Below are positions 2,302 to 30,310 of a DNA stretch of 64,000 bases, piece after piece (within the stretch, counting starts at the first letter, position 1; the number at the start of each line of letters is the position of its first letter). The notes beneath the pieces are model-generated. The model saw only the letters and a program-made list of their open reading frames with translations, made no database searches and was not told the DNA's origin. The stretch is from Thermoplasmata archaeon (GTDB taxonomy: Archaea > Thermoplasmatota > Thermoplasmata > UBA10834): contig JACZKW010000047.1 of the NCBI GenBank assembly GCA_014859835.1, positions 2,723 to 66,722 on the forward strand, in the 5' to 3' direction. A program made the position numbers and the translations under genes.

Positions 2302-4011
2302 TTGCCAGATTCTAGCGGGGACAAACTCTGCCCCATCTGCGATTCTCCACTCCAGCCCGGATCGAAGAAGTGCGGGTTCTGTGGGACAGATTTGTCCATA
2401 TTCGATATGGATGTCGAAGAGCCTGTTCAGCCCATGCCTAGCGCTTCGGCTCCAAAGAAATCAATCGATACGATGGTTCGCGAGATCTTATCGGCTCCTC
2501 GCAATGAGCCCGAGGTCCCTGAGACCCCCAAGACCGAGGTCTCTGATGAATCCGCCGCGACTGCCGCTTCGCTGTTCTCGCAATCCCTATCTGATACCGG
2601 TCCTGAAACGGAGGAACCGGCAGCTGTCGAGGAAGAGGCCACTCCCAAGACACAAGTGACCGAGCCCGCCCAAGAGGACCAATTCGCATGTCCCGAGTGC
2701 GACGCAAGAGTGAGCATCACCGCATCCTCCTGTTCGAATTGCGGTGTTATCTTCTCAGACGAAGGCACAGAAGTATTCCAATGTCCTGCATGTAACACGC
2801 TCGTCAATATCGCCGCCAAGACCTGCCCTGGTTGTGGCGCTATGTTCGTCGAATCCGAGGAGGAAGCGGCTGCGTCAGTGGAACCTCAGCAAGAGCTCGA
2901 GCCGCCGATCGCTGAAGTCCCGGCCGTAAGCGAGACCCCAATCGTGAATGTGGAGGTCGAACCCGAGGATGCCGAGGAACCATCTTTTGATGAGGAGGAA
3001 GCGCCTGAGAAGGCTGCTCCTAAGGAGAAGAAGACCCGCTCACCATTCGGCTGGCTGAAGAAGCGCAAGAAGGACGATGCCCAAGAAGAGGCGGAGCTAG
3101 AGCAAGAACCCGAACCTCTGGACAAGCATGACCACGTCGAGGCCGGGCCATTGCGCCATCTAAAGGAAGAGCCGCAGCCAAGGATACACGAACCGGAGTC
3201 CACCAGACCTGCTCCAGTCCCGAAGACCACTCCCATGAATGTGGATCTGAAGGACAAAGGGAAGGAGCTTGCGAGGATGGTGGCGGAGATGAAGCCACTC
3301 CTGTCCCTGGCCATGCAGAATGAGATCGAGATATCCGAGAGTAAGCAGCTCATCGATGACGCGGCCATAGCTGGACGAGAGAGGCAGCTCGAGAAAGCCC
3401 TTGAGCTCGTTAACACCGCACGCGCGTCCCTCGTGGATTCAATAGACGAGAGGCTGGCCGAGACGCTCGATCAACTGAGGGAAGAGGCCCAAGTAGCCGA
3501 GGAGCTCGGCGGCGAGGTATCTCGATCGAAGACATACATAAGCGAGATGGAGAAGGCCAAATCCAGTGGTGATGTGGAGGCCGCTTTCATCTATTCAGAC
3601 AAGGTCTCGAACGAGCTCCTTCCGATCACGGGCAGATACAACGAAGCGAAGAAGAAACTCAAATCATTGAAATCATTGCTTTCGGATTGCGAGATGCTCA
3701 TACTCGATACAAGGGAGGCACGTGCATCTTTCGTCGAGGCCAACAAGGCCTTTGATTCCAGGGACTTCGATAAGGCCGAGATGCTCATCACGCAGACGAA
3801 CGAGCGCCTCAACGCGGCCATCCCTGAGCGACTCACCGAAGAGATCAAGAACGCTCGTCACCTGCTCGTTGATGCGAAGATCCGAAACGTGAACATAACG
3901 CCTATGCTGACGATATTGAAGTCGGTGACCAACCTGACGAAATCGAAGGACTATTCGCAGGCGCTCAGAGAGTTGAGGGAATTCAAAGAGATGTCGAAGA
4001 AGACCATGTGA
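2302..4011 (+). CDS. triple C4 zinc-ribbon (DZR-type) protein with acidic/Pro-rich linker and C-terminal coiled-coil domain
   Basis: CPICDSPLQPGSKKCGFCG, CPECDARVSITASSCSNCG, CPACNTLVNIAAKTCPGCG; long E/P-rich linker; alpha-helical C-terminus; TTG start with GGAGG 11 nt upstream. Confidence 0.6.
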   Translation: MPDSSGDKLCPICDSPLQPGSKKCGFCGTDLSIFDMDVEEPVQPMPSASAPKKSIDTMVREILSAPRNEPEVPETPKTEVSDESAATAASLFSQSLSDTGPETEEPAAVEEEATPKTQVTEPAQEDQFACPECDARVSITASSCSNCGVIFSDEGTEVFQCPACNTLVNIAAKTCPGCGAMFVESEEEAAASVEPQQELEPPIAEVPAVSETPIVNVEVEPEDAEEPSFDEEEAPEKAAPKEKKTRSPFGWLKKRKKDDAQEEAELEQEPEPLDKHDHVEAGPLRHLKEEPQPRIHEPESTRPAPVPKTTPMNVDLKDKGKELARMVAEMKPLLSLAMQNEIEISESKQLIDDAAIAGRERQLEKALELVNTARASLVDSIDERLAETLDQLREEAQVAEELGGEVSRSKTYISEMEKAKSSGDVEAAFIYSDKVSNELLPITGRYNEAKKKLKSLKSLLSDCEMLILDTREARASFVEANKAFDSRDFDKAEMLITQTNERLNAAIPERLTEEIKNARHLLVDAKIRNVNITPMLTILKSVTNLTKSKDYSQALRELREFKEMSKKTM

Positions 4012-4026
4012 CCTCGATCGATGAGG

Positions 4027-6255
4027 TCAGGTCAGGTTCAGAACCTCCATCTCCCTCTCCATTATCGATATCTCCTGCTCCTTCATGGTCTCAGGACTTA
4101 TCGAGACTGCGAATATGCATTTCGATTCTGACACTTCATCGATTATGCTCCTCAGGAATCTGAGTACTGAATCGAAATTGGTGTTGCTGATAAGGTATTG
4201 TATGCCATCGAGGACGACCATGCTGTTCCCCTCCTCCGACATGAACTCCTGGATCTTGTGAATGATCATCTCCAGTGATGGTGGGACCGTCTTCTCCATC
4301 GAACTATCCTTGTCCGTAAGCCAGAGTATCCGTGGGTCATTTACGAAAGCATCTCTGATCCTCTTTGGGTTCATCCTCGTTATTATGAGCCCTCTGTAGT
4401 TCTCGGCCATCATTCGTTCCATCAGGACATTGCTGTAGGTCGGTTTCTCTTCCTCTATCAGGTAGCAATGGCCAGGCTGGATATTGACCTCCTTCATAAT
4501 CTCCTTCCTAGTCTCTTGCACGGGGGCGAGCGGCTTGAGTATGTCTGAGATGAGGGTCATGTCGATTTCCATCTTCATTATGGTGGAGAACGCGACGACC
4601 TTGTTCAGCGTGCTCTCTATCTCACGGACATTCTGAGTGACCTTTTCGGCGATGTACTTGACTATCTCATCGCTGAGCTTCAACTTCTTCTCATGAGCCT
4701 TCACCCTGACGAGTTTGATCCTGGTGTTCTCGTCTGGCGGCAGCAGATCGACGGTCAATCCCTTCTGGATCCTGGCATTCAACCTGTCGCTGAAGCCTGG
4801 GATCGCTGTGGGTAGCCTGTCGCTAGCAAGCACGACCTGCTTTCCGGAGTCGATGAGCGAGTCGATGATGTGTACCATCTCACCCTGAGCCTGTTCATTG
4901 GCTCCTAGGAACTGCATGTCGTCGACAAGCAGGAGTTCGGCGTGGTTCAGCTCCTCCCTCAGCTTCTTGATGGCATCTGAAGTCGCACTGTGCTCGACCG
5001 CGTCGACTAGCTTGTCGGCCGGCGCGTACAGGACGGCCAATTCTCTGTTCTTGTTCAGTATGTGGTTTCCGATGGCTGACAGAAGATGTGTCTTTCCCAG
5101 GCCAGTCGCACCGAATATCAGGAGCGGGTTGTATGCCTTGCCTGGATTCTCAGCTACCGCGACCGCGGTCGCTGCCGAGAACTTCGAACCTGGTCCTATC
5201 ACGAAGTTGTCGAATCTCATCTCTGGCGGGAATGACCTGGTGAACCTCTGCTCCTTCTCGCACTTGCCGCACTGTCCATCTTCCATCTCCCTGCCGCAGA
5301 TGGGGCACTTCTCGCCTTTCACTGCCTCCTCACCATCGGGTGTTGTCTGGTACTTGAGGATCAAGTCGTATACATCCGACGCCTTCTCATCCCTCTTCTT
5401 ACGTTCCATCTCCTGCTTTATCGAATCCTCTTCTGCCTTCCTCTTCTGTATCTTGCGGCGGATCTTCTCCTGCAGGAACTCGATGTCCGATTCTATCTCC
5501 GCGATACGAGTGCAATCGTTCAGTTTCGTTCTTATCTCCGCAATCTCCGGCTCGAGTCCGAGTATCGGGAAATTGTTCAGGATCGTCTCGAACTGCCTGA
5601 GCTTGTTCGTATCGCGCTCGAAGCTGGTCAGTTCCTTGGAGATCTCCTGGACACCTTGCTCCCTCGCCGTCTCAAGAGTCTCCACCTTGTACCCCTTCCT
5701 GCGCCATTGCTCTATCTTCTCCGCATACGGGTCGATTTCCGCCTCTTCCTTGACCTTCGCTTCGTCTCGGGCCTTAGGGGTCGGTTTGGGGGCGACTCTT
5801 CCAGCGATGTAGGCGTCGGGGAACCGGCGTTCGAATTCCTCTTTGGGGACACGACTGTGGAGCTCGATGTTGGACTCCTTGTCCTGCGAGTCCTCGAGTA
5901 TGAATCTCAGCGACTTCTCTCCGGTGTATATCCTCCGCAGCTCCCTGGGTTTCGATTTCTCAAACTCGTAGATCGCCATGACAGGCGTCCCAAGCTCCAC
6001 CACTATGTAACCCGTGGAGTTCATCATGGACTTCTCGAGCGTGACCTTCAGGTAACCAGTGAAACTGTATTGTTTCAGGTCCGACAGTATGCCTTTTAAT
6101 GAATCAAGGCCTCCTTTGGCGGTCCTTACGATTATCCCCTCAGGGATTCGGAGATCACTAGCCATGTCTGGGTCCGCTCCGTGAATACTGTCGAAACCTA
6201 TTAACCCTTGTTGCTCGTCATAACCGCTGGCGTGGACCGATGCCGCCATTACCAT
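4027..6255 (-). CDS. multidomain DnaA/Hda-like AAA+ ATPase: DUF4388-like N-domain, coiled coil, zinc ribbon, DnaA domain III (incl. lid), C-terminal DUF835-like domain
   Basis: FDNFVIGPGSKFSAATAVAVAENPGKAYNPLLIFGATGLGKTHLLSAIGN (DnaA box VII/Walker A), LLLVDDMQFL (Walker B), VVLASDRLP (sensor), LTVDLLPPDENTRIKLV, NVREIESTLNKV (lid); CPICGREMEDGQCGKCE zinc ribbon; C-terminal PGHCYLIEEEKP...ILWLTD...VVLDGIQYLI DUF835-like; start moved to in-frame ATG at 6255 because ORF-track N-terminus (to 6411) overlaps a tRNA. Confidence 0.8.
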   Translation of the reverse strand: MVMAASVHASGYDEQQGLIGFDSIHGADPDMASDLRIPEGIIVRTAKGGLDSLKGILSDLKQYSFTGYLKVTLEKSMMNSTGYIVVELGTPVMAIYEFEKSKPRELRRIYTGEKSLRFILEDSQDKESNIELHSRVPKEEFERRFPDAYIAGRVAPKPTPKARDEAKVKEEAEIDPYAEKIEQWRRKGYKVETLETAREQGVQEISKELTSFERDTNKLRQFETILNNFPILGLEPEIAEIRTKLNDCTRIAEIESDIEFLQEKIRRKIQKRKAEEDSIKQEMERKKRDEKASDVYDLILKYQTTPDGEEAVKGEKCPICGREMEDGQCGKCEKEQRFTRSFPPEMRFDNFVIGPGSKFSAATAVAVAENPGKAYNPLLIFGATGLGKTHLLSAIGNHILNKNRELAVLYAPADKLVDAVEHSATSDAIKKLREELNHAELLLVDDMQFLGANEQAQGEMVHIIDSLIDSGKQVVLASDRLPTAIPGFSDRLNARIQKGLTVDLLPPDENTRIKLVRVKAHEKKLKLSDEIVKYIAEKVTQNVREIESTLNKVVAFSTIMKMEIDMTLISDILKPLAPVQETRKEIMKEVNIQPGHCYLIEEEKPTYSNVLMERMMAENYRGLIITRMNPKRIRDAFVNDPRILWLTDKDSSMEKTVPPSLEMIIHKIQEFMSEEGNSMVVLDGIQYLISNTNFDSVLRFLRSIIDEVSESKCIFAVSISPETMKEQEISIMEREMEVLNLT

Positions 6256-6302
6256 GTCAAAAGGCTTAACTACAGAGACAATCTTCCCAACATTCCGTCT
6301 GC

Positions 6303-6406
6303 CACTGTAGCTCAGCGGTTGCGCCTGCGACCATGCAGGTGCCGCTAGAGAGCGGCAGTTTCGTAAACTGCAGGCCGGGGGTTCGAGACCCTCCAGTGGC
6401 TCCATA
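6303..6406 (+). tRNA. tRNA-Thr (anticodon CGU) with ~27-nt intron in the D-loop; CCA encoded
   Basis: Acceptor GCCACTG/CAGTGGC, D-stem GCTC/GAGC interrupted by TTGCGCCTGCGACCATGCAGGTGCCGC, anticodon arm GCAGT-TTCGTAA-ACTGC, T-arm GGGGG-TTCGAGA-CCCTC, discriminator T + CCA. Confidence 0.65.
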
Positions 6407-6461
6407 TCCACCCTCGTTGTCCAAGTGACAACTCTAATATGTCAGCGAGTCAATCGGCTTT

Positions 6462-7373
6462 TTGATGCCGGGCAAATCCGTTGTGTTCATCCCAGATTCC
6501 AAGTGCTCGAACTGCGGCACCTCCATCTCGGACTACTTGCAGGTCCAGGGTGATGGGAAAGCCACGTTCGTCTGCCCCAACTGCGGTAGTCCTGTTATCC
6601 GCGAGATCGTAGCCGGGGTTGCGCCTCCGACCCATCCTGACGAGGTTATCGAACTCGGGGGTGGCCAGACGACCAAGAGCCACTATCCTTGTCTCTACAT
6701 TCAACCCAGACACGCTCCACGATTCGACCTTCGGAACATGGTCCTGACATCGATCCGTCCGACCAAGTCCTTGACGAATCTGTATCTGTCCACCGATCTG
6801 AGACATGCGATCGCGATGGTCCTGGTATTCAGCGTGATCTCCACGATATTCAGTGTACTCATCACGCACGATATGGCTGAAGTGGTCGGTTACACTTCAA
6901 GGGATGCAGTCGGCATCGTCCTACAGGGGGTCGTGGGATGGATCGTCACCCTGTTATCGTTCCTCATATTCGGGGTCGTGGCTGCGCTTCTGTCCCACGA
7001 GATCTTCGGAGGGCGGGGAGACAAAGGATCGACCCTCACCCTGGTCGCTCATTGCTATCCCTGGTTCGTGGTCCTTTCGATAATCCTGCTGTCCCTCTTC
7101 GACTACGGGTTTGTAGGTCTCGACCTCGCGGGCGTCGATAGTTGGGCAGATGATGAGATTCAACAAGCCATGGTGTTCGGCGCGATATTCCTGGTCTTGG
7201 TCCTTGCTGGTTTGGTGTGGATCCTGCGCATCGTGAGCAAGGCGATTGGAGTAGCAAACGACATATCGACGGGTTCCGCAGCTCTGTGCGCCATCCTCGC
7301 AGGCGTCGCTGCAGGAATAATCGCACTCATCGTCGGCTCTTTCATGCGATTGCCGATAGGGATAAATTTCTGA
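6462..7373 (+). CDS. zinc-ribbon + polytopic membrane protein (Yip1-like topology)
   Basis: N-terminal CSNCG...(17 aa)...CPNCG ribbon followed by ~5 hydrophobic helices. Confidence 0.5.
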   Translation: MMPGKSVVFIPDSKCSNCGTSISDYLQVQGDGKATFVCPNCGSPVIREIVAGVAPPTHPDEVIELGGGQTTKSHYPCLYIQPRHAPRFDLRNMVLTSIRPTKSLTNLYLSTDLRHAIAMVLVFSVISTIFSVLITHDMAEVVGYTSRDAVGIVLQGVVGWIVTLLSFLIFGVVAALLSHEIFGGRGDKGSTLTLVAHCYPWFVVLSIILLSLFDYGFVGLDLAGVDSWADDEIQQAMVFGAIFLVLVLAGLVWILRIVSKAIGVANDISTGSAALCAILAGVAAGIIALIVGSFMRLPIGINF

Positions 7374-8645: not shown

Positions 8646-8919
8646 CTGATACCACTGCTACAAAACGACCAATCAGTATAAAGCCTTTGATTGACAAGGC
8701 GATTCATGGTATCTGACAAGGGCTTCTGGCCACAGCCAATCGGTGGCCTTTCTTTTTCGACCTGTGACTTCTGGCTCACCTTGCGCGATTCGCCCTATCA
8801 TCGACCATTCCCCGCTCCATCGGCACCTGCCGATTTTTCGAGTGGAAACCAGTCGGATGAGTCGGCGATATGCTGCAATGGAAACGGAGGTGAGTTTTTG
8901 TCGTAGCCAGATAGTATTC

Positions 8920-13672: not shown

Positions 13673-14386
13673 TTGTTTAGAGACTCGATACAAGGTCTGG
13701 AAAAGGTTTTCAAGAACGACATCGAGAGGCCCAAAGTCATACTCGTCACCGGCCCTCCAGGATCGATGAAGACGAGCTTCTGCTATTCTCTGATGTCGCA
13801 CTACCTGAGAGATAAGAACGAGTTCGGCCTCTACGCCACTCTCGAAGAGACGGTCGACAGTCACCTGAAGAACATGGAGAGCATGGGCGTGAAGCTCTCC
13901 GCGAAGATGCAGATATCGGATATGACCGACCTCAGGGAGATCGACCAGATCGACGAGGTCATCGGCGATTCGGCACAGACGGATTACGTGCTCTTCATAG
14001 AGAAGATGATACAGCGTTTCAGGAGGACTCATGGAGACAAGTTCTCGATATTCGTCCTCGACTCGCTGGGCGCGCTTTACTCTCTGATGGAGAACGCGGA
14101 GGACATGAGGAAGAAGATGTTCTATTTCTTCAAGATGCTAAGGGACAACAACCTCACATCATTCATAATCATGGAACGGTCGTTGACAGGTGAGTCGCAG
14201 CTTCTCGGAAACGAAGGCTTTCTCGCAGACGGCATCGTGATGCTGGGCCTTGACCGCCAGAGGGGTAAGCTGGTGAGATACCTCCAGGTTGAGAAGATGA
14301 GAGCTGCGGAGCACAGTATGGAGAAGCACGCCATCGAAGTCAACAACTCCGGGATGCAGGTGCTGGGCCCGTTGCTCAGCACTTGA
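13673..14386 (+). CDS. single-domain KaiC/RecA-superfamily ATPase (ArlH/FlaH-like size), degenerate P-loop
   Basis: SIQGLEKVF...VILVTGPPGSMKTSFCYSL, IFVLDSLGALYSL; Walker A reads GPPGSMKT (Gly before Lys replaced by Met). Confidence 0.7.
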   Translation: MFRDSIQGLEKVFKNDIERPKVILVTGPPGSMKTSFCYSLMSHYLRDKNEFGLYATLEETVDSHLKNMESMGVKLSAKMQISDMTDLREIDQIDEVIGDSAQTDYVLFIEKMIQRFRRTHGDKFSIFVLDSLGALYSLMENAEDMRKKMFYFFKMLRDNNLTSFIIMERSLTGESQLLGNEGFLADGIVMLGLDRQRGKLVRYLQVEKMRAAEHSMEKHAIEVNNSGMQVLGPLLST

Positions 14387-20549: not shown

Positions 20550-22304
20550 TCAGGTTCGCTGAGGAGGTCCGGTCTCTGCCAGTTTCGCCCGGACCTCTTT
20601 CATCACCTTGTCAGGATCCTTGTAATATGCAGATATGATGGTGGCAACCTTCCTGTGATTGTCGATGCTCATCTTCTTCATGTACTCGAGGATGTCGACA
20701 CGCCTCTTGATCTCCCTTTCCATCTCGCGAGGTGCCCAGTTTCTGGCCATTCTGACCTTCTCGTACACGTAGCTGTGACCGCTGTAGTTGAAAGTGTCAT
20801 CTGCTGGATTCCACGTGTAGACGGAGTTTGTGATCAGCTCATCGGTCTCGGGGTCGATGCCGACGATCTCCGTCAGTGACTTGACTCGTCTGGTCATCTT
20901 GGTCCCGACCTTGACCTGAGCCTGCAATAGCACGATATTGAGGGCGGTTATCAATGCCCTGGGCAGGTTGATGGGGTCGTTCTCCATCCTGTGAACCATC
21001 GCCTGGACATCCTCTGCATGGAAAGTGGAATAGCAGGTCTTGCCAGTTGCCATGGCCTGGAACACGACATACGCTTCCTTGCCTCTGACCTCACCGACCA
21101 TCAGATACTGAGGCCTCTGTCTCATGGCTGCCGTGAGCAAGTCGAACATGTCTATCTCACCGGAAGATCTTCCAGTGATCATGCTCTTCCCGCCGAAGCC
21201 TTCTCGGGTCAGACCCGGGACCCAGTTCTCATGTGGTAGGTTGAGCTCCCTGGTGTCCTCGATGGAGACGATCTTCATCTGCGGGGGGATGAAAAGGAGA
21301 ACGGCGTTCAAGGTCGTGGTCTTTCCACTCGCGGTACCTCCACACACGAGCATCGACTCTCCATGCTCGATGCCTATCCAGAGGTATGCCATCATCTCCG
21401 TGCTCATCGTCTTGAATTTGAGTAGGTCGAGCGGGGTGAAAGGATTCTCCTTGAACCGTCTGATTGTGAATGACGAACCCCTCTTCGTGACATGCTTCCC
21501 GAGGGTCGCCTGCAATCTGGAGCCGTCCGGGATCGTAGCGTCCAGAAGTGGGCTCGCAACCGAGATGTGCTTGCCGCACTTCTGGGCAAGCCATACAACG
21601 AAACCATCGAGTTCCACCTCCTTCTCGAACCTGAGATTGGACCTTATTGAGCCGTATTTCCTGTGATAGATGTACAGCGGGACGTCGACTCCATCGCACG
21701 AGCAGTCCTCTACATTGGGTTCGGCCATCATCACGTCGATGACGCCGTAGCCGAGGAAATCCCTGAGGAGATAGTACATCACCCTCTCCTTGGATACTGG
21801 ATGCAACGAGATGCCCAGCTGGTCCATGAGCTCCTCGATGATCCGTCTGAGGTACTTCTCCTTCTCGGAAGGTTCCTCCTCGGTCATCTTCTCGACAGAT
21901 GCGATGAGGGTCTCTTTCAGCAGAGCGAGCACAGCTGCCTCGTCCCCCAGCAGCTTAGGCTCGATCACCTCGTATGTGTACTCGTTGGCCTTGTTGTCGT
22001 ACCTTATCCTGACATATGAATAATTCTGTTTGACCGGGATCATCTCGACCTCGTCGATATTCGACTCGGTCAGCTTTGGTATCTCCGTGATCTGGCTGAT
22101 GTCGACCTTCACCTCGTTCTTGGTGATCGCGATCATCGCAGGTCTGGGCTTTATCTTCATAAGGAAACCGTAGTACGCTGCGAAAAAGCCTCCGCTCTTC
22201 GCCTTCTCCTCCTCTGGTGGGGGAGTCTCATCTGCTTCAGGCGCGTTTGGCTGCGGTTCTTCCGTTTCTATCTTGGCCTGCTCGGTTTCAGACATCTCAA
22301 TCAC
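20550..22304 (-). CDS. FlaI/TadA/VirB11-family secretion-pilus ATPase (paralogue B)
   Basis: LVCGGTASGKTTTLNAVLLFIPP Walker A, Asp/His boxes, FlaI-like N-domain; no archaellum accessory genes nearby. Confidence 0.85.
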   Translation of the reverse strand: MIEMSETEQAKIETEEPQPNAPEADETPPPEEEKAKSGGFFAAYYGFLMKIKPRPAMIAITKNEVKVDISQITEIPKLTESNIDEVEMIPVKQNYSYVRIRYDNKANEYTYEVIEPKLLGDEAAVLALLKETLIASVEKMTEEEPSEKEKYLRRIIEELMDQLGISLHPVSKERVMYYLLRDFLGYGVIDVMMAEPNVEDCSCDGVDVPLYIYHRKYGSIRSNLRFEKEVELDGFVVWLAQKCGKHISVASPLLDATIPDGSRLQATLGKHVTKRGSSFTIRRFKENPFTPLDLLKFKTMSTEMMAYLWIGIEHGESMLVCGGTASGKTTTLNAVLLFIPPQMKIVSIEDTRELNLPHENWVPGLTREGFGGKSMITGRSSGEIDMFDLLTAAMRQRPQYLMVGEVRGKEAYVVFQAMATGKTCYSTFHAEDVQAMVHRMENDPINLPRALITALNIVLLQAQVKVGTKMTRRVKSLTEIVGIDPETDELITNSVYTWNPADDTFNYSGHSYVYEKVRMARNWAPREMEREIKRRVDILEYMKKMSIDNHRKVATIISAYYKDPDKVMKEVRAKLAETGPPQRT

Positions 22305-23284
22305 GCAAACAGTATTCTGAGGGAAACAAATCCTGCGACCAACATGATGAAGCTGTGCCTCATCCCTATGGGTATGCTCCCCTTCTGGATGACACCAGCT
22401 AGCAGCCCATCCCCAACCGCATGCACCACTATCGCAAGTAGGAATATGAATGAGATATCGTCGATGAGGGCGACCTTGATGTTGACTCCCGGAATCTCCT
22501 GTAATCCCATATCCTGAGCCGCATCGTTCACCGTCGTTCCCGCCTCCTCCATCTTAGGGAGGAACTGCAGGTCGAGGATCAATATTGTCGCAATGAACAC
22601 GAAGAATGAAATGTAGACGACCATCACATAGGTCGACATGGTCACGTTCCTCTCCTCCTGTGTGAGGATGGATTCCTTGGCATCATGGGACACCATAGTG
22701 AGGACATCGGCGACGTTGCCACCCGCGTCGTTGGCCTTCCTGATTATCGATGTCATTCTTACGACCAGAGGTGTCTTGACCCTTTCCGAGAACAATCTGA
22801 TGGCCTCAGATGCGGGCACACCCCATTCTATCTGCGCAGCCATCTTCTTGATTTCCGGAGTCAATCGGCCATATCTGCCGGACGATGCGATGACGATCGA
22901 GTCCGCCAAAGTCATGCCGAACCTTCCGGCCTCCGCCACATCTCTGAGGAAATCGGGTAGTCTGGTCTCGATCTCCCTGATATGCTTCTCCTTCGCCGAT
23001 GTGTAGAATCCGTAGGGGGCAAGGAATGCCAATATCCCAAAGATGACGTAATCGATCGGTTCGAACGGGAGCGAAAGGCTGCCTATCCCATCTATGATCG
23101 CCAAGAACACGCATATGCCCACAGCGGCGAACGAACCTGCTAGGATGGTTCTAGTCTTATCGGACTTCTCAGTGGCAAGGATCTTCTTGATCGCCCTCTC
23201 CTGTTCTGCCTGACTGAGCTTCTTCGTTGCCATCCTACATCGCCCCTTCCTGTGACATGTTCCAAATGACAAATATGAATCCAA
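22301..23284 (-). CDS. FlaJ/TadC-like platform membrane protein (half-size, part B)
   Basis: 327 aa, polytopic, T2SSF-like cytoplasmic domain; overlaps neighbours by 4 and 50 bp. Confidence 0.65.
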   Translation of the reverse strand: MDSYLSFGTCHRKGRCRMATKKLSQAEQERAIKKILATEKSDKTRTILAGSFAAVGICVFLAIIDGIGSLSLPFEPIDYVIFGILAFLAPYGFYTSAKEKHIREIETRLPDFLRDVAEAGRFGMTLADSIVIASSGRYGRLTPEIKKMAAQIEWGVPASEAIRLFSERVKTPLVVRMTSIIRKANDAGGNVADVLTMVSHDAKESILTQEERNVTMSTYVMVVYISFFVFIATILILDLQFLPKMEEAGTTVNDAAQDMGLQEIPGVNIKVALIDDISFIFLLAIVVHAVGDGLLAGVIQKGSIPIGMRHSFIMLVAGFVSLRILFA

Positions 23285-24278
23285 ACTGCGAGATCGGGAT
23301 CATCCCCAGGACGATCAGGTACAGGAGCGTGACCATCATGTCGGAGTCACCTCCACCGACGATTGCCATGATCGCCATGATGAGAACAAGGAATAGGGGG
23401 AAAGCAACGACGACAGTGACGAAGGATTCGGCGAGCATGCCAAGTGTCTCCATCTGGGACTTCATGGCGAGCTTGTTCTCCTTCTGGTATTCATCCGCCT
23501 TGAGCAGGAAGTACGGCTTGAGTTGCCCACCTGATGTGGAAGTGGTGACGACACCCTGCAAGAACTCCTGGAACTTGGCCGAGGGTGACCTCTTCGAAGC
23601 CTTCTTGATGGCGGTCAGGATATCCGATCCCAGTAGTTCCGTGTCACGCGTGATCCACGAGGACTCCTCCGAGATCTCACCGTAGACCTTCTGCCTCGAG
23701 AGTTCCTTGAATATGACATCTATGTTGACATCCGCCGACGCCATGGCAGAGATGAAGCCCATCGCAGCCGCGATCCTCTTGTCGATATCCCTGCCCCTGG
23801 ACTTGGCCTTGGAGGCCGGTGATCCCATGAGCATCATGAACGCCATCATGGGTAACAGACCAATCGCTATGCCTGATATCATGATCCTAACCATTATCGA
23901 TACGCCGAGCACCCCGAAGAGGATGATGCCGACGACCACTGCTATGACCACTCCTATGGCGAATGCGATGATAGTGCTCATGAGTACATAGGCATAGTAT
24001 TCTTCGACCCGTATCCTCATATGGGCCTTGTTGAGTGATTCCTCAAGGGCCTGGTTGTTGGCGCTGGTCATCTTATCGCTCGCGAACTTGCCCATTATGC
24101 GCCAGGACAAATCCTGAAACTTGGTCAGGCTGACGTAGTCGGGGACGGCGCCCTTGGTCAATCGGACTCCATGAGGTCCGATGTCCTCCCCTCTCTGGGT
24201 CAGCTTCGTCTTGAGGTACTCTCCCTTCTTGGTCTCGACCCTCTCGAAGACATCGGAGACTTCAGGCAGAGTCGACAC
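23235..24278 (-). CDS. FlaJ/TadB-like platform membrane protein (half-size, part A)
   Basis: 347 aa, polytopic, T2SSF-like; 17-bp overlap with upstream ATPase. Confidence 0.65.
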   Translation of the reverse strand: MSTLPEVSDVFERVETKKGEYLKTKLTQRGEDIGPHGVRLTKGAVPDYVSLTKFQDLSWRIMGKFASDKMTSANNQALEESLNKAHMRIRVEEYYAYVLMSTIIAFAIGVVIAVVVGIILFGVLGVSIMVRIMISGIAIGLLPMMAFMMLMGSPASKAKSRGRDIDKRIAAAMGFISAMASADVNIDVIFKELSRQKVYGEISEESSWITRDTELLGSDILTAIKKASKRSPSAKFQEFLQGVVTTSTSGGQLKPYFLLKADEYQKENKLAMKSQMETLGMLAESFVTVVVAFPLFLVLIMAIMAIVGGGDSDMMVTLLYLIVLGMIPISQFGFIFVIWNMSQEGAM

Positions 24279-26022
24279 CTCCTGTCGGCATCTTCAAACC
24301 GCTCTGGGAGGCTGCCGGGTACATTTCCTTTCGAGCCATTTCCGCCACTCCCTTCGGGTCCTTGTAATATGATTTGATGATGTTCCAGATGTCCACATGG
24401 TCAGACATGTCCTTCGATACCATGTATTTCACGATATCCACACGGCGCTCGAATTCCTCCAGCAGTTCCTCGTGTGTCAGGTTCTTCATTTCCATGATCT
24501 TGTCAAACAGGAAACTGTGGCCCTTGAAGATGAACTTGTCCGTGGCCTGATCCCATTCGTAGACCGTGTTGCTGATGAGCTCGTTCGTTTCGGGTTCGAA
24601 ACCGACGATTTCGATGAGCTGCTTGATTCTCCTGACCATGTCCATTCCTACTCTTGCATGTGTCTGGATGATGACATTCCTGAGGGCAGTGAGCAGAATT
24701 CTGGGACAATTGATCGGTGGGTTCTCAAGCCTGTTGACCATGCCCTTGACAGAATCCGCGTGCATGGTCGAGAAGGTCGTGTGACCGGTCGCCATCGCTT
24801 GGAACATGGTGTAGGTCTCCTTTCCTCTCACCTCTCCGACGATGATATAGTTCGGCCTCTGTCTCAACGCGGCCCTGACGAGGTCGTACATATCTATCTC
24901 ACCCGCGGCCTTTCCGTCCGGCCCTCGCTCACCTGAGCCAGATCTTGTCGTGGCGGGAATCCAGTTCTCATGAGGTAGGTTGATCTCTCTTGTATCCTCC
25001 ATGGTGACGATTTTGGCACCAGGGGGTATGAATAGTGACATGGCGTTGAGCGTCGCCGTCTTTCCACTAGCCGTGCCTCCGGCTATGATGGCCGACTCTC
25101 CATGCTCCACACCGAGCCACAGATACGCGACTATCTCTGGTGATGCCGTGCCGTACTTGATCAGTTCGACCGGCGTGAACGGTTTCTCCTTGAATCGTCT
25201 GATTGTGAACGAGGCACCCCTCGTGGTCACTTCTCTCGCATAGGTCGCCTGGACTCTGTGCCCTTCCGGCGTAGTACCGTCTAGTATGGGGTTCGAGACG
25301 GAGAGCTGCTTCCCACATCTCTGGCCAAGCGATATGACGAACGAGTTGAGGTCATCCTCATCCTCGAACACGACATTGGTCTTGATGGATTCGAACTTGC
25401 TATGGAACAGGAACAGTGGGATGCCTACGCCATCGCAGGATACGTCTTCGACATGAGTGTCGCTAATCATTGCATCTATGGGACCATATCCGACGAAATC
25501 CCTCGTGATGAAGTACTTCACCTTGTCTTCCGAGATCGGTTCGAGTCTGATACCCCTCGACTTGATGTAGCTGTCCACGCTCCTCTCCAGGTAGGTCTTC
25601 TTGTTCATGTGGTCGAGCTTCGCCCACTCGTAATCGAGGATCATCTCGAAGGTGGCCTTGATCTTCTTCAACAACGCATCTTCGTCTTCGGTCAGCACCG
25701 GCTCGATCACGCTCATTATGTAATCGCTAGTGGCTGCGTTGTAAGTAACCCTCACATAGCTGAACGGATCAACCACTGGATAGAATGCCATCTCCTGGAT
25801 ATCAGGATCCGTTATGGGGGGGATCTCGGTGTACGGTGACCCCTTCCCGTCCTTCCACTGCTTCCTCCTAGCAGCTGCACCCTTCGCGGATTTGATTTTG
25901 ATGGGTTCGGATTTGAGCCTGCTCACAGCGTTGATGTATCCATGCCAGATGCGAGCGCCTATTGGCTGCTTAGGGACTTTAACGGGTATGTCATATTCAA
26001 TTTTCGCATCTGCCTCAGACAA
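24262..26022 (-). CDS. FlaI/TadA/VirB11-family secretion-pilus ATPase (paralogue A)
   Basis: IIAGGTASGKTATLNAMSLFIPP Walker A, GEVRGKE, His box; clearly paralogous to 20550..22304. Confidence 0.85.
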   Translation of the reverse strand: MSEADAKIEYDIPVKVPKQPIGARIWHGYINAVSRLKSEPIKIKSAKGAAARRKQWKDGKGSPYTEIPPITDPDIQEMAFYPVVDPFSYVRVTYNAATSDYIMSVIEPVLTEDEDALLKKIKATFEMILDYEWAKLDHMNKKTYLERSVDSYIKSRGIRLEPISEDKVKYFITRDFVGYGPIDAMISDTHVEDVSCDGVGIPLFLFHSKFESIKTNVVFEDEDDLNSFVISLGQRCGKQLSVSNPILDGTTPEGHRVQATYAREVTTRGASFTIRRFKEKPFTPVELIKYGTASPEIVAYLWLGVEHGESAIIAGGTASGKTATLNAMSLFIPPGAKIVTMEDTREINLPHENWIPATTRSGSGERGPDGKAAGEIDMYDLVRAALRQRPNYIIVGEVRGKETYTMFQAMATGHTTFSTMHADSVKGMVNRLENPPINCPRILLTALRNVIIQTHARVGMDMVRRIKQLIEIVGFEPETNELISNTVYEWDQATDKFIFKGHSFLFDKIMEMKNLTHEELLEEFERRVDIVKYMVSKDMSDHVDIWNIIKSYYKDPKGVAEMARKEMYPAASQSGLKMPTGGVDSA

Positions 26023-26032
26023 AAGCTCACCT

Positions 26033-27223
26033 CTAAGGGGCCACCTCGCCCAGTGTTACCAGGATCGTCGCGTGCGTGTGGTCCAAAACGTTCACATCCT
26101 TGATCGTGACTGTCAATGTGTAGTAATCGTTCTGGGTGCCTTCCGAATCATGTAGCGTGAGAGGTCCTATTGAGAAGTCAGTATCGTATGTCAAGCCCGC
26201 CATCGAGTTGTTGAGCGCCTTGTTGAAATAGGTCAGCCAAGCGTTTCCGTGCTTGCTCACTATCGTGAACGTGAGGTCAGCTCCCACATCGCTTTCGTAT
26301 ACATTGGTGTTGGCATAGAGGAGATCAACGTATATCCCCTTCGTGCCAGTCCCACCCACGGTCTTGTCCAGGCCTAGCATCGAGACCTGTGTAAGCTTGA
26401 CAACTCGGCTCGTGTCAACCCCTGCAACGATATTCGTGACCGAGAACTGAAGCCCCGCTATGATATATTCTCCATCTGACTGGTTGAGTATCAGGGCACC
26501 GCAATCATAGGTCAGGTGCTGCTCGACATAATACCTGTTAGGTGCATAGAAGTCGATGTATCCGCCAGCGTGTCCGTCATCGCTTGTGCTCAATGTCTGC
26601 TCGTCGCCTACGAATGTCGCATTGAACGATGGATACCCGGTGGTGGATTGAGAACCGAACTGTAATATTCCAGCTGTCGGTGCAGCGAATATCGGTATGC
26701 CCTGGGCATGTAAAGTTATCGGGACGAAAACGGGAGTAGGGGCCAGAAGGCTGTTCGAATAATCCGCGACCAGCCCGTCGACCTGGGACTTGAGGTAGAT
26801 CATCTGCTGGACAACTGTCGCCATATGCGCGCTCTCGTTATCGCTCATCCAGACAGGGACGAACTGGTTGGTGAACATGCCCATGAACGTAAGGAACACA
26901 AGCAGCGACATGATGGTGCCGATTGTAGAGGCAACCCCCTCATCATCGTTCCATCTCGGCGATCGCTTAATACGGCCAATAACGGAGTTTCCAGAATAGC
27001 TATTTCGAATTTCTGACAAGTCCATCCTACCACCGAAGGGGGGTTTCTGAAGCAACCTAATCAGCGTCTGAAGCATATTTAAAGTCTTCGTTTCTGGTAT
27101 CGTCTGGAATACACCTTTTTTTGCCACCCCAGATCGATCGGATTCGCCTGGTCGTATGGACCATCGATGTTGATCAATCTCGTCCGACCCCCTCATCGAT
27201 ACCGTCGATTTCAGTTCTTGCAC
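26033..27223 (-). CDS. signal-anchored extracellular beta-rich protein, first gene of the pilus-like operon (pilin-like/pilus-associated candidate)
   Basis: single N-proximal hydrophobic segment VASTIGTIMSLLVFLTFMGMF preceded by charged RIKRSPRWNDDEG, then Thr/Ser/Asn-rich beta-type sequence; GTG start at 27223 (in-frame ATG at 27196); 10-bp gap to ATPase A. Confidence 0.4.
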   Translation of the reverse strand: MQELKSTVSMRGSDEIDQHRWSIRPGESDRSGVAKKGVFQTIPETKTLNMLQTLIRLLQKPPFGGRMDLSEIRNSYSGNSVIGRIKRSPRWNDDEGVASTIGTIMSLLVFLTFMGMFTNQFVPVWMSDNESAHMATVVQQMIYLKSQVDGLVADYSNSLLAPTPVFVPITLHAQGIPIFAAPTAGILQFGSQSTTGYPSFNATFVGDEQTLSTSDDGHAGGYIDFYAPNRYYVEQHLTYDCGALILNQSDGEYIIAGLQFSVTNIVAGVDTSRVVKLTQVSMLGLDKTVGGTGTKGIYVDLLYANTNVYESDVGADLTFTIVSKHGNAWLTYFNKALNNSMAGLTYDTDFSIGPLTLHDSEGTQNDYYTLTVTIKDVNVLDHTHATILVTLGEVAP

Positions 27224-27289: not shown

Positions 27290-27365
27290 GCCGTGGTAAC
27301 TCAGTTGGGAGAGTGCAAGACTGAAGATCTTGAAGTCGCTGGTTCGAGTCCGGCCCACGGCACCA
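27290..27365 (+). tRNA. tRNA-Phe (GAA), CCA encoded
   Basis: GCCGTGG-TA-ACTC..GAGT-G-CAAGA-CTGAAGA-TCTTG-AAGTC-GCTGG-TTCGAGT-CCGGC-CCACGGC-A-CCA. Confidence 0.9.
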
Positions 27366-27475
27366 TTCCCTTGTCCAGGGTGGTCGAGGTGTTGCCCCTC
27401 GATCTGCAACCCTTTATTGGAATAGATTCATGTCCTTGGTACGTCCTATACGCGACAGGACGGAGGAGAACAAGA

Positions 27476-27913
27476 ATGCCGATCAAATCATTCGAACTAG
27501 TGTCGCTCGATGCGAAGAGATTCACGAAATTGGGGGAACGGGTTCCTCAGCTCAGGGTCGATCACAATACTTCAGTGACGAGCATATCGGCGATGTCCGA
27601 GAAGGATGCCATGGTGGAATTCACATTCACCGTCAGCTATGTCGGCGTCGGGATAATCAAGATCGAAGGTAAAGTCGTATGGGACGGGGAAGCCCAAACA
27701 ATCGCGTCCCAATGGGCCAACAAGAAGGAGCTCCCTCAGACTGTATTCAACCCTATCCTGAACGCGATCTTCGCGAACTGCATGCCCGCAACCGTCACCG
27801 TGGCGCGGGACATAGGCCTGCCACCGCCGTTGCCGCCTCCGCAAGTCGCGATGAAGCGGAACGCCAAGATGCCGGGCGGGAAGGACCATAAATCGTCGAT
27901 GGAAGTGGCCTGA
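27476..27913 (+). CDS. hypothetical protein (145 aa, Pro-rich C-terminus)
   Basis: ORF-track start 27293 overlaps tRNA-Phe; in-frame ATG at 27476 has GGAGG 10 nt upstream. Confidence 0.45.
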   Translation: MPIKSFELVSLDAKRFTKLGERVPQLRVDHNTSVTSISAMSEKDAMVEFTFTVSYVGVGIIKIEGKVVWDGEAQTIASQWANKKELPQTVFNPILNAIFANCMPATVTVARDIGLPPPLPPPQVAMKRNAKMPGGKDHKSSMEVA

Positions 27914-27928
27914 TAGGCCTACGTTCTC

Positions 27929-30310
27929 TCATCTTATGTGGTCAAGCGAGAACGATCCGATGTTCAGTCCGGATTTGGTGAAAGAGTATCTTATGAAGGC
28001 TCTTGACTGAACCTCGCAGATACCCTTCACCGATAGGAACATGTTCAGGTTCTCGAGTTTGAACTCGATCATGCCGTCCATGAGCGATCCGAGCATCTGG
28101 ATCTCCTGATCTCCATGGACGCCCTTCTCGATCGTGTACATCGAGACCGCCTTGTCTCTCTTCCTTCTGCCGGCGACTGGACTGAGGAATCTGAATGCTG
28201 TGTTCGGGTCCAGATACGCTATGAGTGTGGAGATCGATCTGAACGCCATCCTATAGTATTCGTGGTCTTTCTTGAACCCTTTGGCGGCCTTCTCCAGCGC
28301 CTTCTGGATCGATTCATAATCAGTTGGCGCCTCGACGTATTCAGTGTACGGGTCCTCGGTCTCGTCACCCATGCTCCGGGAATAAGTGTCCACGTATCTG
28401 ACGAGCCCCCTGCTCTCATATTCCTCGTATCCTGAGAGCACGAACATCATCTCGTTCCTGATCTCCTTAGGTGATTTCTCGGTGATGACCCATATCGCAG
28501 GGATGCCTTTCTTCAACCCCTCTGCGATGAATGAATTCATGAGTACTTCCTTGCCCGTGAAGGGCGGACCATAAATCAGCATGTTCGACCCGAAGGGCGC
28601 GCCGCCCAGAAGCAGATCATCGAGTCTGGTGGTCCCAGTCTTGACCTTCTCCTGCTTGAGTTCGATGAGCCTGTCCTGCTCCCTCTTCTCAATCTCATCT
28701 GTTATGAGCCCCTGCTCCCTCGCACGGAGTTCGTCCTCCTTCATCGAGAAGTACTTCTCCTTGTTCCTAATCTCCTCTTCCTTCTCGGTGATCTGCCCCT
28801 GCAACTCTTCGAGGCGTTGCTTCGTGGTTAATTCGTCAGTGTTCATGAGGCTGGCTTTCTGCTGGGAGGCCCTCTTCAGTTCCTCCTCCAGGAGCCTCTC
28901 CCTGAACATCAGGTCTTCCTCTCGGCGGATCATCTCCTGCTCTTTGTAGGCCAACGGTTCCTTGAGCTTCCTCGTCTCGTCGTCTCGTATCCTCAACTCT
29001 TCCTTCAGCTTCTCGATCTCTTGCTCTCTCAGAGCGAACGACCGCTCGAGGTTCTGGGCCTGTTCCAACCTCTTCATCAGCTCCGGGTCCAGCACGGAAC
29101 CCTTCATCTCTGATATCTTCGCTTTCTCTTCCAGATGCTTCATGTCGAATTCTGTCCGGGAGAGCTTCGCCTCCAATCCGTGTATCTGCTCGTTGAGCTC
29201 GCGTTCCTTGGCGGAGGACTCCTCCAGCTCCTTGATGCGTTCTTCACTGTCCGAAGGCCCTCTGCCATAGGACATTATGCCTTCCTGGAGCGTGTTCTCC
29301 TTGGCCTTGAGCTGTAACTCATAGGCATCGATCTGTGCCATCCTCTGCGATAGCTCGATCTCCTGGCGCTTGAGGGTCTGTGCATCCACTGGCATCTCGG
29401 CGATACCCTTCTCCGTCTTTTCCCTGAAATCCCTCAGTTGGCTCTCGAGCTCCATGACTTTCAGTTCGAGATCCTCCTTCCGGGCCATCTCGGACGCGAG
29501 CTTGTCCGCGAGGTTCTCCGCATCAGCTGGCGCCCCCTGTTGCTTCTTGATGAACTTGATGACTGCGATACTTCCGCGTTTGACGTTCTCCAGCTCCTCC
29601 TCCAGTTGTTTCCTGTGAACGCGCTCGGCCTCGACTTCGCTCTTCGTGTGGGCTAATTGTTCAAGGACGGCCTGAGGATTGAACCCATCCGTCTCGAACT
29701 GCTTCAGCGTCTGTCTCAGTGTTTCGCGGAGTTGTGTGATCTCCTCTCCGTGCTCGAGCATCTCCTCGGGCACGCTCTTCTTAGGTATGGAGGCGCTCTT
29801 GATCTTGGGCTCATCGAGCCATGACTCAAGCCCCTCCTCGGTGCCAGCGAGCCATTTGGCCAGTGAATCATCATGGGTGAGTCCCGGTTCGGTCGTGGCC
29901 ACCGCTTCCTTCTCCTCATGGTTCTCGCCAGAGATCCATGCGGACAGACCTTCGTCCTCCCCAGCCAGCCAATGGGCGAGTTCCTTGTTCTCAGGGTTCA
30001 CCTGCGATCGGGCACCCTTGAGTATCTTTGCGGCTAATTTGTCCCCAATGCCTTTGATCCCGGCCAGTTCGCCAAGGTCTGCATTCTGCAGGTCATTGAC
30101 ATTCCTATAGCCGGCTTTGAGCAATAAATGAGCCTTTGCCTCGCCGACTCCCGGGACCGACATAAGTCTCTCGACGTCCCCCTCGCCCGAAGGAGAATCC
30201 TCTACCAAGGGGGCAGCACAGTGCTCACAACTGCCCTCGGAAACGGAAGACTCCTGCCCGCAATTCGGACATAAGGCGTGTCGCTTTTCCGCGTCATCTT
30301 TTTTCGGCAT
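27929..30310 (-). CDS. zinc ribbon + helix-hairpin-helix + long coiled coil + C-terminal KaiC-like RecA-fold domain (degenerate Walker A)
   Basis: CPNCGQ...CEHCAAPL; HhH GVGEAKAHLLLKAGYRNVNDL...IKGIGDKLAAKI; ~400 aa E/K/R/L/Q heptad region; TRLDDLLLGGAPFGSNMLIYGPPFTGKEV (KaiC-like, Ser/Thr of P-loop replaced by Glu). Confidence 0.75.
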   Translation of the reverse strand: MPKKDDAEKRHALCPNCGQESSVSEGSCEHCAAPLVEDSPSGEGDVERLMSVPGVGEAKAHLLLKAGYRNVNDLQNADLGELAGIKGIGDKLAAKILKGARSQVNPENKELAHWLAGEDEGLSAWISGENHEEKEAVATTEPGLTHDDSLAKWLAGTEEGLESWLDEPKIKSASIPKKSVPEEMLEHGEEITQLRETLRQTLKQFETDGFNPQAVLEQLAHTKSEVEAERVHRKQLEEELENVKRGSIAVIKFIKKQQGAPADAENLADKLASEMARKEDLELKVMELESQLRDFREKTEKGIAEMPVDAQTLKRQEIELSQRMAQIDAYELQLKAKENTLQEGIMSYGRGPSDSEERIKELEESSAKERELNEQIHGLEAKLSRTEFDMKHLEEKAKISEMKGSVLDPELMKRLEQAQNLERSFALREQEIEKLKEELRIRDDETRKLKEPLAYKEQEMIRREEDLMFRERLLEEELKRASQQKASLMNTDELTTKQRLEELQGQITEKEEEIRNKEKYFSMKEDELRAREQGLITDEIEKREQDRLIELKQEKVKTGTTRLDDLLLGGAPFGSNMLIYGPPFTGKEVLMNSFIAEGLKKGIPAIWVITEKSPKEIRNEMMFVLSGYEEYESRGLVRYVDTYSRSMGDETEDPYTEYVEAPTDYESIQKALEKAAKGFKKDHEYYRMAFRSISTLIAYLDPNTAFRFLSPVAGRRKRDKAVSMYTIEKGVHGDQEIQMLGSLMDGMIEFKLENLNMFLSVKGICEVQSRAFIRYSFTKSGLNIGSFSLDHIR

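Follow-up and report, generated by a model that had tools for sequence, protein, structure and literature searches.

Known ribbon families and filament systems

In archaeal proteomes, few uncharacterised modules are as common as the zinc ribbons of C(P)XCG type, and their binding partners are almost never known. Here we describe eleven predicted ribbons of this type in six proteins, called A to F, which are encoded between positions 2302 and 30310 of a 64,000-nucleotide (nt) stretch of DNA from an uncultured Thermoplasmata archaeon (contig JACZKW010000047.1 of assembly GCA_014859835.1); the whole stretch is referred to as the window. The Pfam families DZR (PF12773), Zn_ribbon_3 (PF13248) and Zn_Ribbon_1 (PF13240) share with these ribbons two CxxC knuckles placed ten residues apart, often in the form CPxCG...CxxCG followed by a hydrophobic residue. 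However, these families are defined by the ribbon only and have no assigned function, whereas the ribbons of the window occur in specific, conserved multidomain contexts. The haloarchaeal C(P)XCG proteins, such as HVO_2753, HVO_0758 and Brz, carry the same two-motif signature, and the ribbons of F and B give weak NCBIfam matches to the HVO_2753 and HVO_0416 families. Most of the haloarchaeal proteins are stand-alone micro-proteins with a length below 70 amino acids (aa), while the hosts in the window are multidomain proteins of 303-1600 aa from a different phylum. Deletion of several C(P)XCG zinc-finger genes in Haloferax alters swarming and biofilm formation (PMC6562870, PMC11241148).

KaiC-family ATPases and coiled-coil and zinc-ribbon proteins (arCOG07264, arCOG06883, arCOG07564) recur as accessory genes of archaeal type IV pilus loci (PMC4858521). 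The window resembles the archaeal pilus and archaellum loci (ArlH/FlaH) in that KaiC-like genes stand beside a FlaI/PilB-TadC operon, but its ArlH scores are far below the cut-off and it has no archaellins. In Helicobacter pylori, HP0958 (FlgZ), which combines a coiled-coil hairpin with a zinc ribbon, is needed for flagellum formation, and Makarova et al. (2016; PMC4858521) invoked it as an analogue for the coiled-coil proteins encoded with archaeal type IV pili. Protein B shares with HP0958 the design of a long coiled coil leading to a C4 ribbon beside a filament system. The likeness is architectural only, since no such family is among the Pfam and NCBIfam matches of B (E ≤ 0.01), and B differs in having two ribbons and a basic C-terminal peptide and in belonging to another domain of life and another filament system. 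Thus neither the ribbon type nor the general association of archaeal pilus loci with KaiC-like, coiled-coil and zinc-ribbon proteins is new. Three things are not described in the literature searched: a giant adhesin whose conserved ribbon tail cassette is linked to a dual-ATPase filament operon, a protein combining ribbon, helix-hairpin-helix (HhH), coiled coil and a presumably inactive KaiC domain, and a DnaA-AAA+/DUF835 fusion.

Eleven zinc ribbons in six neighbouring proteins

A regular-expression scan of the six-frame translation for CxxC-x(6-20)-CxxC identified exactly six open reading frames (ORFs) between 2302 and 30310. They are the same six proteins, with the same number of ribbons in each, that a first-pass annotation made from the letters of this DNA had listed. 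After the removal of overlapping matches between adjacent knuckles, the total is eleven C4 ribbons, that is, 44 cysteines, distributed as follows.

2302..4011, plus strand, protein A, 569 aa: three C4 ribbons, C10/C24 (nt 2329-2382), C130/C144 (nt 2689-2742) and C161/C175 (nt 2782-2835)
4027..6165, minus strand, protein D, about 712 aa from M83 (ORF 4027-6411): N-terminal alpha/beta domain, long helix, one ribbon, C369/C381 (nt 5260-5307), DnaA-type AAA+ domain (nt 4747-5220) and DUF835 (nt 4048-4446)
6462..7373, plus strand, protein F, 303 aa: one N-terminal C4 ribbon, C15/C38, with a 19-residue spacer (nt 6504-6584), then a Yip1 domain
14506..15513, plus strand, protein B, 335 aa: N-terminal coiled coil, then two tandemly duplicated ribbons, C226/C240 (nt 15181-15234) and C276/C290 (nt 15331-15384)
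15612..20414, plus strand, protein E, 1600 aa: signal/anchor segment, CARDB/Ig-like ectodomain, transmembrane (TM) helix at about nt 19614-19682, and a tail with a double ribbon, C1368/C1382 (nt 19713-19766) and C1396/C1410 (nt 19797-19850), a helical segment, a third ribbon, C1490/C1504 (nt 20079-20132), and then a variable proline-rich spacer
27929..30310, minus strand, protein C, 793 aa: one N-terminal ribbon, C14/C28 (nt 30218-30271), HhH_5 (nt 30008-30172) and a KaiC-like domain (nt 28052-28645)

All eleven ribbons have two CxxC knuckles, most with CPxC and/or CxxCG, and thereby agree with the two-motif definition of C(P)XCG proteins (PMC11241148). The knuckles are ten residues apart in nine ribbons, eight in D and 19 in F, which corrects the earlier range of 9-14. 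The ribbons had also been called double, which applies to the true tandems A2-A3 and E1-E2 only, the remainder being single. Likewise, the long coiled coils said to accompany nearly all of them were recovered as long helical or coiled-coil segments in four of the six proteins, but F has none and the tail of E has a short helical stretch only. Among the 59 genes called in the window by greedy ORF selection, eight encode motif-bearing proteins, as compared to a mean of 0.03 (maximum of 1) in residue shuffles. Chance occurrence is thereby rejected, as the annotation had supposed. The two motif or zinc proteins outside 2302-30310 are an Lhr helicase (35695-38439) and an 83-aa protein (49585-49836, plus strand). 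The latter is a treble-clef zinc finger (zf_Tbcl_2, 1e-20; CSDCG...VPFKP...RPVYCKEC), of another type than the DZR-class ribbons.

All 59 proteins were scanned with Pfam. Protein A matched Zn_ribbon_3 (37.0 bits, cut-off 27), DZR (35.9, cut-off 27.3) and UPF0547 (35.8), all above the cut-offs. The matches of B to Zn_ribbon_3 (53.6; 1e-14) and DZR (39.5; 6e-10), and of E to DZR (36.1; 7e-9), Zn_Ribbon_1 (32.9; 5e-8) and Zn_ribbon_3 (29.7), were also above the gathering thresholds. The profiles thus bear out the assignment for A, B and E, but the ribbons of F (Zn_ribbon_3, 19.6, below 27) and C (DZR_2, 16.2, below 27) fell under the threshold, and that of D matched no Pfam zinc-ribbon family at E ≤ 0.01. 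The C4 pattern and the invariant cysteines indicate that the ribbons of D, F and C are of the same general kind. All eleven motifs can accordingly be described as predicted zinc-stabilised ribbons of the common DZR/Zn_ribbon_3 (archaeal C(P)XCG) class. Sequence searches of the PDB with the tail of E and with A gave no significant match, only weak ones to the ribosomal proteins L32 and L40e (E ≥ 0.05).

Ribbon conservation and local concentration

In orthologue alignments with 18-65 orthologues per family, all 44 cysteines are invariant. The ribbons are the best-conserved parts of A and of the tail of E: identity outside the cysteines is 0.92 in ribbon 1 of A as compared to 0.63 for the whole protein, and 0.86-0.93 in the tail ribbons of E as compared to about 0.5 for its ectodomain. 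Specific binding surfaces would therefore be fitting for A and E. The mean charge of the ribbon segments is neutral to acidic (-2.6 to +0.9), which favours protein over nucleic-acid binding. To compare the ribbons with each other, a profile was built from the orthologues of each ribbon and scored on every ribbon of the window, with cysteine-preserving shuffles of the targets as a control. Within proteins, the copies are clear duplicates, with 56-57 bits for B1/B2, 31-45 for A2/A3 and 35-38 for E1/E2 (z = 9-18). Between proteins, the likeness corresponds to the class consensus only (z of about 1-7). An all-against-all comparison thus relates the copies within proteins closely but, across proteins, places the ribbons in one common class, and there appears to have been no recent exchange among the proteins.

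The motif is present in six of the 21 genes in the first part of the window, versus two of the 38 in the remainder (Fisher p = 0.02). For the background, the window was pooled with 122 fetched loci, and every ORF of 100 aa or more was assigned by clustering to one of 212 families. Three of the 206 other families contain the motif (Lhr, a TiaS-like protein and one fragment), or two of 69 when only other families with at least two members are counted. Against these backgrounds, six of 21 gives p = 0.002 to 2e-5, although the fetched loci are mostly syntenic with the window, so that the rate is not a whole-genome one. By a binomial estimate, six of 21 would cease to be notable only with a motif frequency of 8-10% or more among all proteins. 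For Haloferax volcanii, the curated annotation gives C(P)XCG frequencies of 2.2% overall and 0.6% among proteins longer than 100 aa (PMC11241148, Table 1). The local concentration noted at first thus holds in all the DNA sampled, that is, in the window and the 122 loci.

Two conserved modules

The genes of the neighbourhood are ordered OGG, AdoK, A, D (minus strand), F, ThiC, GyrB, GyrA, a KaiC-like gene, B, E, a minus-strand filament operon, a gene for a 145-aa protein, and C (minus strand). The neighbourhood consists of at least two modules and is not one family or unit, since the ThiC and gyrase genes stand between them. Module 1, an apparent envelope/adhesion machine, comprises the KaiC-like protein, B, E, the convergent filament operon and C, and module 2 comprises D flanked by A and F.

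A scan with an alignment of 17 D sequences, with one genome kept per species, retrieved 44 loci in which D is 60-98% identical. The close relatives of the window found in this way are Thermoplasmata metagenome-assembled genomes (MAGs) throughout. The order Lhr-like (1793 aa), OGG, AdoK, A, D, F, ThiC, GyrB, GyrA, KaiC-like, B is present in essentially every locus that is long enough, with the part from A to B in about 40 genomes, and each ribbon protein keeps the same motif number. Among the genomes with this block are CP070732.1, OY970070.1, CP070748.1, JAHIRF01 and GCA_004525325.1. A metagenome scan with C retrieved 78 loci, about 25 of which show the order C, 145-aa protein, pilin-like protein, ATPase, TadC, TadC, ATPase, E. 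The order from C to E is also found in a group in which C is only 43-45% identical and in which different genes lie beyond C.

Far more distant loci were found with the tail of E. In all six of those whose surroundings were compared, an orthologue of the ATPase at 20550 (63-85% identical) is convergent with the adhesin gene, in one case 7 kb off, behind an insertion. GyrA-KaiC-B-E is kept in two of the six distant lineages. Because they are paired in all six loci, the adhesin and the dual-ATPase/dual-TadC operon form the conserved core. The KaiC-like protein and B are frequent additions to this core, and C is conserved in the wider lineage at least. Conservation across such wide divergence makes a functional linkage of the KaiC-like protein, B, E, the operon and C well supported. 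The linkage of A, D and F has weaker evidence, because the whole region, including its housekeeping genes, is syntenic.

The adhesin, the filament operon and their neighbours

Protein E matches the Pfam family CARDB (5e-15), its TM helix was located with a TM scan, and a lenient Pfam search (E ≤ 1) with the N-terminal 630 aa gave nothing usable. From this topology we infer that the tail is cytoplasmic. The tail ends with an invariant basic peptide, PKMVIRRPIDRKVVPKKIIKTP (nt 20289-20354). A search with the 155-aa tail cassette against 1.84 billion representative proteins matched, at E ≤ 1e-30, proteins of at least 165 clusters (50% identity). These proteins have 1000-4499 aa, and the full cassette is always located near their C-terminus. 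Its order is the same throughout the retrieved sequences: the TM helix is followed by the double ribbon (GLGK-VECGECG), and then come a helical segment, the third ribbon, a spacer that varies and at least one basic peptide of the (V/I)(V/I)KK(V/I)(V/I)KKP type. The cassette is thus conserved on ectodomains of 1,000-4,500 residues across many Thermoplasmatota lineages. Some distant E-like proteins (P0390, P0366, P0352, P0387) have up to three or four KKVVIKKP-type repeats.

Protein B has an SMC-like coiled-coil match at aa 8-202 and an invariant basic peptide, PQ(I/V)FVKKIVKKK, at its C-terminus (nt 15469-15510). Both B and the tail of E end in a basic-hydrophobic peptide (FVKKIVKKK in B, VVPKKIIKTP in E), a second shared feature besides the ribbons; this peptide could bind the membrane or a partner protein. 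The remaining members of module 1, apart from C, are the following.

13673..14386, plus strand: KaiC-like protein, 237 aa, directly upstream of B (KaiC ATPase, PF06745, 8e-34)
20550..27223, minus strand: Tad/PilB3/FlaI-like type-IV-filament operon, convergent with E
26033-27223, minus strand: operon gene 1, pilin-like gene, N-terminus ...DDEGVASTIGTIMSLLVFL
24262-26022, minus strand: operon gene 2, T2SSE ATPase
23235-24278 and 22301-23284, minus strand: operon genes 3 and 4, T2SSF/TadC
20550-22304, minus strand: operon gene 5, second T2SSE ATPase, PilB3/FlaI-like
27476..27913, plus strand: conserved protein of about 145 aa, between the operon and C

The 237-aa KaiC-like protein also matches KaiC_arch_4 in NCBIfam (2e-21) and, weakly, ArlH (7e-6). 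Its Walker A motif, GPPGSMKT, is invariant and deviates from GxxxxGK[ST]. KaiC precedes B in 22 loci, and also in two distant ones, L130 and L133.

The operon products match T2SSE (1e-31 and 4e-34), T2SSF (1e-16 and 3e-12) and PilB3_C, and thus include the ATPase and platform of a type IV pilus/Tad-like system. The genes overlap or abut in 18-30 loci. The N-terminus of the pilin-like protein is shared with the homologue in locus L128, MKKMYRRKEEGIASTVGTIFALMIF, and both have a short charged leader, the sequence ...EG(V/I)AST(I/V)GTI and a hydrophobic helix. The pilin-like protein matches no pilin model in Pfam or NCBIfam, including a lenient Pfam search at E ≤ 1, and no peptidase A24 gene, the expected prepilin peptidase, is among the window genes scanned with Pfam. 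With 290-500 aa, these proteins would be unusually large for a pilin-like subunit, and the L128 copy (12965-14470) also has a Laminin_G_3 domain. An archaellum was rejected as an identity for the system, as the FlaI model scored 430 bits (cut-off 550), ArlH scored 26 (cut-off 215) and no archaellin family was detected.

The 145-aa protein has 60 orthologues of about 145 aa that always adjoin C. It had no Pfam match even at E ≤ 1, and a likeness to SecB was considered but dropped since this lenient search gave nothing usable.

In protein C, the ribbon and HhH_5 are followed by two WLxG(E/D)(E/D)xLxxWL peptides, then by about 350 aa of coiled coil and finally by the KaiC-like domain, and the protein matches KaiC (PF06745, 2e-17), DUF7504 (2e-14) and HHH_5 (5e-14). 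The P-loop, GPPFTGKE, is invariant and degenerate, with a Walker A motif that lacks S/T and no Walker B acid, and the KaiC-like domain is probably inactive. The cysteines of the ribbon are kept in 65 sequences, including homologues at 42-45% identity. The two WLxG peptides are located at aa 114-131 and 153-170 (about 29800-29970), between the HhH domain and the coiled coil, and the peptide persists in the remotest homologues (L125), although these seem to lack the HhH domain.

Proteins A, D and F

Between its ribbons and its C-terminus, protein A has an acidic, disordered linker that bears a conserved KGxFGWFKxxKKE peptide. The C-terminus is a helical-repeat rod of about 260 aa (nt 3220-4008). 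An AF2 model of this rod (aa 307-569; pLDDT 90.8) has nine helices in a long-short-long repeat, and a Foldseek search of the PDB found no fold match at E < 0.001. The 241 homologues of A are all annotated as hypothetical and are confined to this lineage.

Protein D starts at M83 (position 6165). The first 82 codons of ORF 4027-6411 are spurious, because they are antisense to a tRNA (6301-6401) and because all homologues start at the equivalent of M83; ORF 27293-27913, which contains the gene for the 145-aa protein, is likewise mis-started, since its 5' extension overlaps a tRNA-Phe (27290-27365). The Pfam matches of D are Bac_DnaA (PF00308, 171.6 bits, 2e-50) and DUF835 (5e-29), the latter being described as an inactivated KaiC-like domain (iKaiC) (PMC5847659). 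The AAA+ domain has canonical Walker A and B motifs, and residues C369, P370, C372, G373, G379, C381 and C384 are invariant in 17 sequences. For the N-terminal fragment, a Foldseek search of the PDB gave no match at E < 0.001 and a lenient Pfam search (E ≤ 1) nothing usable. There are at least 1284 homologues of D, the top 120 of which are 62-100% identical. We rejected D as a true DnaA initiator, as it has no Bac_DnaA_C domain (domain IV) and its TIGR00362 score of 275.3 is below the cut-off of 343.9. Clusters with D at more than 60% identity number over 100, and bacterial-type gyrB-gyrA genes (9015-13545 in the window) always lie some 3 kb from it. This layout recalls the order dnaA...gyrB-gyrA at bacterial origins, and co-acquisition from bacteria is conceivable.

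The membrane domain of F matches Yip1 (4e-9) and has five TM segments in a hydropathy scan. The cysteines of its ribbon are kept in 38 orthologues, and F adjoins D in 33 loci.

What the ribbons may do

The reading that we favour, at a little short of even confidence, is that the ribbons are cytoplasmic, zinc-stabilised docking knobs that join the scaffold proteins and the adhesin tail to partners; we infer both the zinc binding and the partners. The ribbons would be small, rigid knobs held on rods, coiled coils or flexible acidic linkers, through which the scaffolds and the adhesin tail may engage partner proteins at the membrane. Candidate partners would be rings of the KaiC-like or AAA+ proteins, or else the ATPase/TadC platform of the pilus, and ATPase-like switches could in this way be coupled to the surface adhesin and to the assembly of filaments. 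A docking role is suggested by the extreme conservation of the ribbons in A and E, by their neutral-to-acidic charge, by the reports of similar accessory genes at pilus loci and by the swarming and biofilm phenotypes in haloarchaea. Small C4 modules placed by an ATPase or on a flexible tether, such as the N-terminal zinc-binding domain of ClpX and the TFIIB ribbon, recruit adaptors or dock onto a machine. We propose this as the working principle for the ribbons of D, C, A, B and E, as a functional analogy only.

Several observations weigh against docking, and most of them would be expected if the ribbons were unrelated structural mini-domains, as found on many large non-enzymatic proteins, and if their proximity merely reflected a conserved order of unrelated modules. 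The housekeeping genes ThiC, GyrB and GyrA part modules 1 and 2, and together with OGG and adenosine kinase they interrupt the cluster while being just as syntenic, so that adjacency is a weak argument for A, D and F; the largely syntenic background also tempers the enrichment. The likeness of ribbons across proteins is at the class level only. In C and D, the identity outside the cysteines is 0.50-0.60, which is under the averages of these proteins, and the ribbons look structural rather than like an interface because little is kept beyond Cys, Pro and Gly. The number of ribbons in B varies among lineages: of the orthologues taken from the fetched loci, that in L133 (6684-7973) has one and that in L130 (2331-3401) has none, as compared to two in the lineage of the window. 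Both of these orthologues keep the N-terminal coiled coil, the basic C-terminal peptide and the GyrA-KaiC-B-E context, which argues that the ribbon in B is an add-on, dispensable for the core function. Nor does the motif always bind zinc, as five of 14 C(P)XCG proteins were reported to be zinc-free (PMC11241148). However, the motif is rare in the roughly 200 other families sampled, ribbon 1 of A and the tail ribbons of E are far better conserved than the rest of their proteins, the linkage of E to the pilus operon survives wide divergence, and B and E share the basic C-terminal peptide in addition to the ribbons. Unrelated mini-domains therefore seem to us a rather improbable explanation, albeit a serious one.

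These results divide the earlier proposal of a family of interacting scaffold or adaptor proteins. The scaffold-like build, seen in a helical rod, in coiled coils, in acidic linkers predicted to be disordered and in short peptides that are conserved, and the presence of B, E and C in one conserved module agree with it, but the division into at least two modules, the generic ribbon class and the add-on nature of the ribbon in B do not.

Zinc ribbons bind nucleic acids in many proteins, and the ribbons, along with the HhH domain of C and the AAA+ domain of D, might bind DNA or RNA, in which case the block could tether the chromosome to the membrane, or transfer or take up DNA by way of the filament machine. 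The HhH_5 domain of C is similar to the N-terminus of RadA and has a weak match to ComEA, the AAA+ domain of D is of the DnaA type, and gyrase, two Lhr-type helicases and OGG are encoded in the block. On the other hand, the ribbon segments are neutral to acidic, D is without the DNA-binding domain IV of DnaA, three of the ribbons are on the tail of a membrane adhesin and one is on the Yip1 membrane protein, and the PDB matches to L32 and L40e are not significant. We consider a nucleic-acid role unlikely. Far less probable still is that the tetracysteine sites are thiol or zinc switches, as in Hsp33 and the ZAS anti-sigma factors, that report the redox or metal state to the KaiC-like and AAA+ proteins. 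Each site has four invariant cysteines, certain C(P)XCG sites of Haloferax carry no metal or a metal other than zinc (PMC11241148), and HdrA-MvhD, thioredoxin and OsmC genes are present in the window. However, the Pfam and NCBIfam scans found no sequence features of known redox-switch families, the redox genes are located outside the conserved modules, with the HdrA-side flank replaced in the distant group, and structural zinc binding is the more economical explanation for eleven sites that share one simple ribbon type.

More speculatively, a cytoplasmic plaque at the base of the filament machine might be formed jointly by the tail of E, the ribbon proteins with coiled coils and the degenerate proteins of the KaiC-like and AAA+ types, as a prokaryotic analogue of integrins and focal adhesions, in which ribbons and basic peptides would serve as a docking code between the surface and the switches; we regard this extended model as a long shot. 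If the ribbons are only structural, the window represents an ordinary case of a common domain. If they are docking knobs, giant surface proteins of archaea that form a large family and are now annotated as "hypothetical" would gain a function, the coupling of adhesion to intracellular control in uncultured sediment Thermoplasmata would gain a first handle, and the idea that KaiC-like proteins are signalling hubs in archaea would have a case on which to be tested. The locus offers a concrete and deeply conserved setting for ribbon function, with a giant adhesin whose tail is far better conserved than its ectodomain, a paired filament operon and, frequently, a KaiC-like and a coiled-coil partner.

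Other features of the window

The OGG glycosylase and adenosine kinase genes, identified in the Pfam scan, lie 5' of A in the gene order of the 2302-30310 neighbourhood. The window starts inside the minus-strand gene for the Lhr-like helicase of about 1793 aa, which has DEAD, Helicase_C, WH_Lhr, DEAD_assoc and AlkZ-like domains as judged from the left flanks of loci L005-L044. This helicase comes on top of the ordinary Lhr of 914 aa at 35695-38439, and the plus-strand ORF 33-734 is probably spurious. An identical copy of protein B (14506-15513) is present in the NCBI MAG GCA_004525325.1.

At about 370 bp, the spacer between the divergent ThiC and GyrB genes (8646-9014) is unusually long. Neither a riboswitch (no TPP) nor another RNA family was detected in it with Rfam, and the same scan gave four tRNAs only for the whole window. 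A 110-aa ORF in this spacer (8673-9005) has one homologous ORF among the fetched loci and is probably not a gene. The tRNA genes are located at 6301-6401 and 27290-27365 on the plus strand and at 50196-50292 and 52050-52125 on the minus strand. Those at 6301-6401 and 50196-50292, of about 100 nt, are missed by ARAGORN and probably contain introns.

The region from 30 to 64 kb encodes housekeeping metabolism, including HdrA-MvhD, PurM-like, FtsJ, Lhr, enolase, leucine/TCA-type enzymes, transporters and thioredoxin. The gene at 30466-33039 (plus strand), which adjoins that for protein C, encodes an HdrA-like flavoprotein fused to an MvhD/FlpD domain and several 4Fe-4S domains. The distant group of loci has other genes on this side, which places the flavoprotein outside the conserved module.

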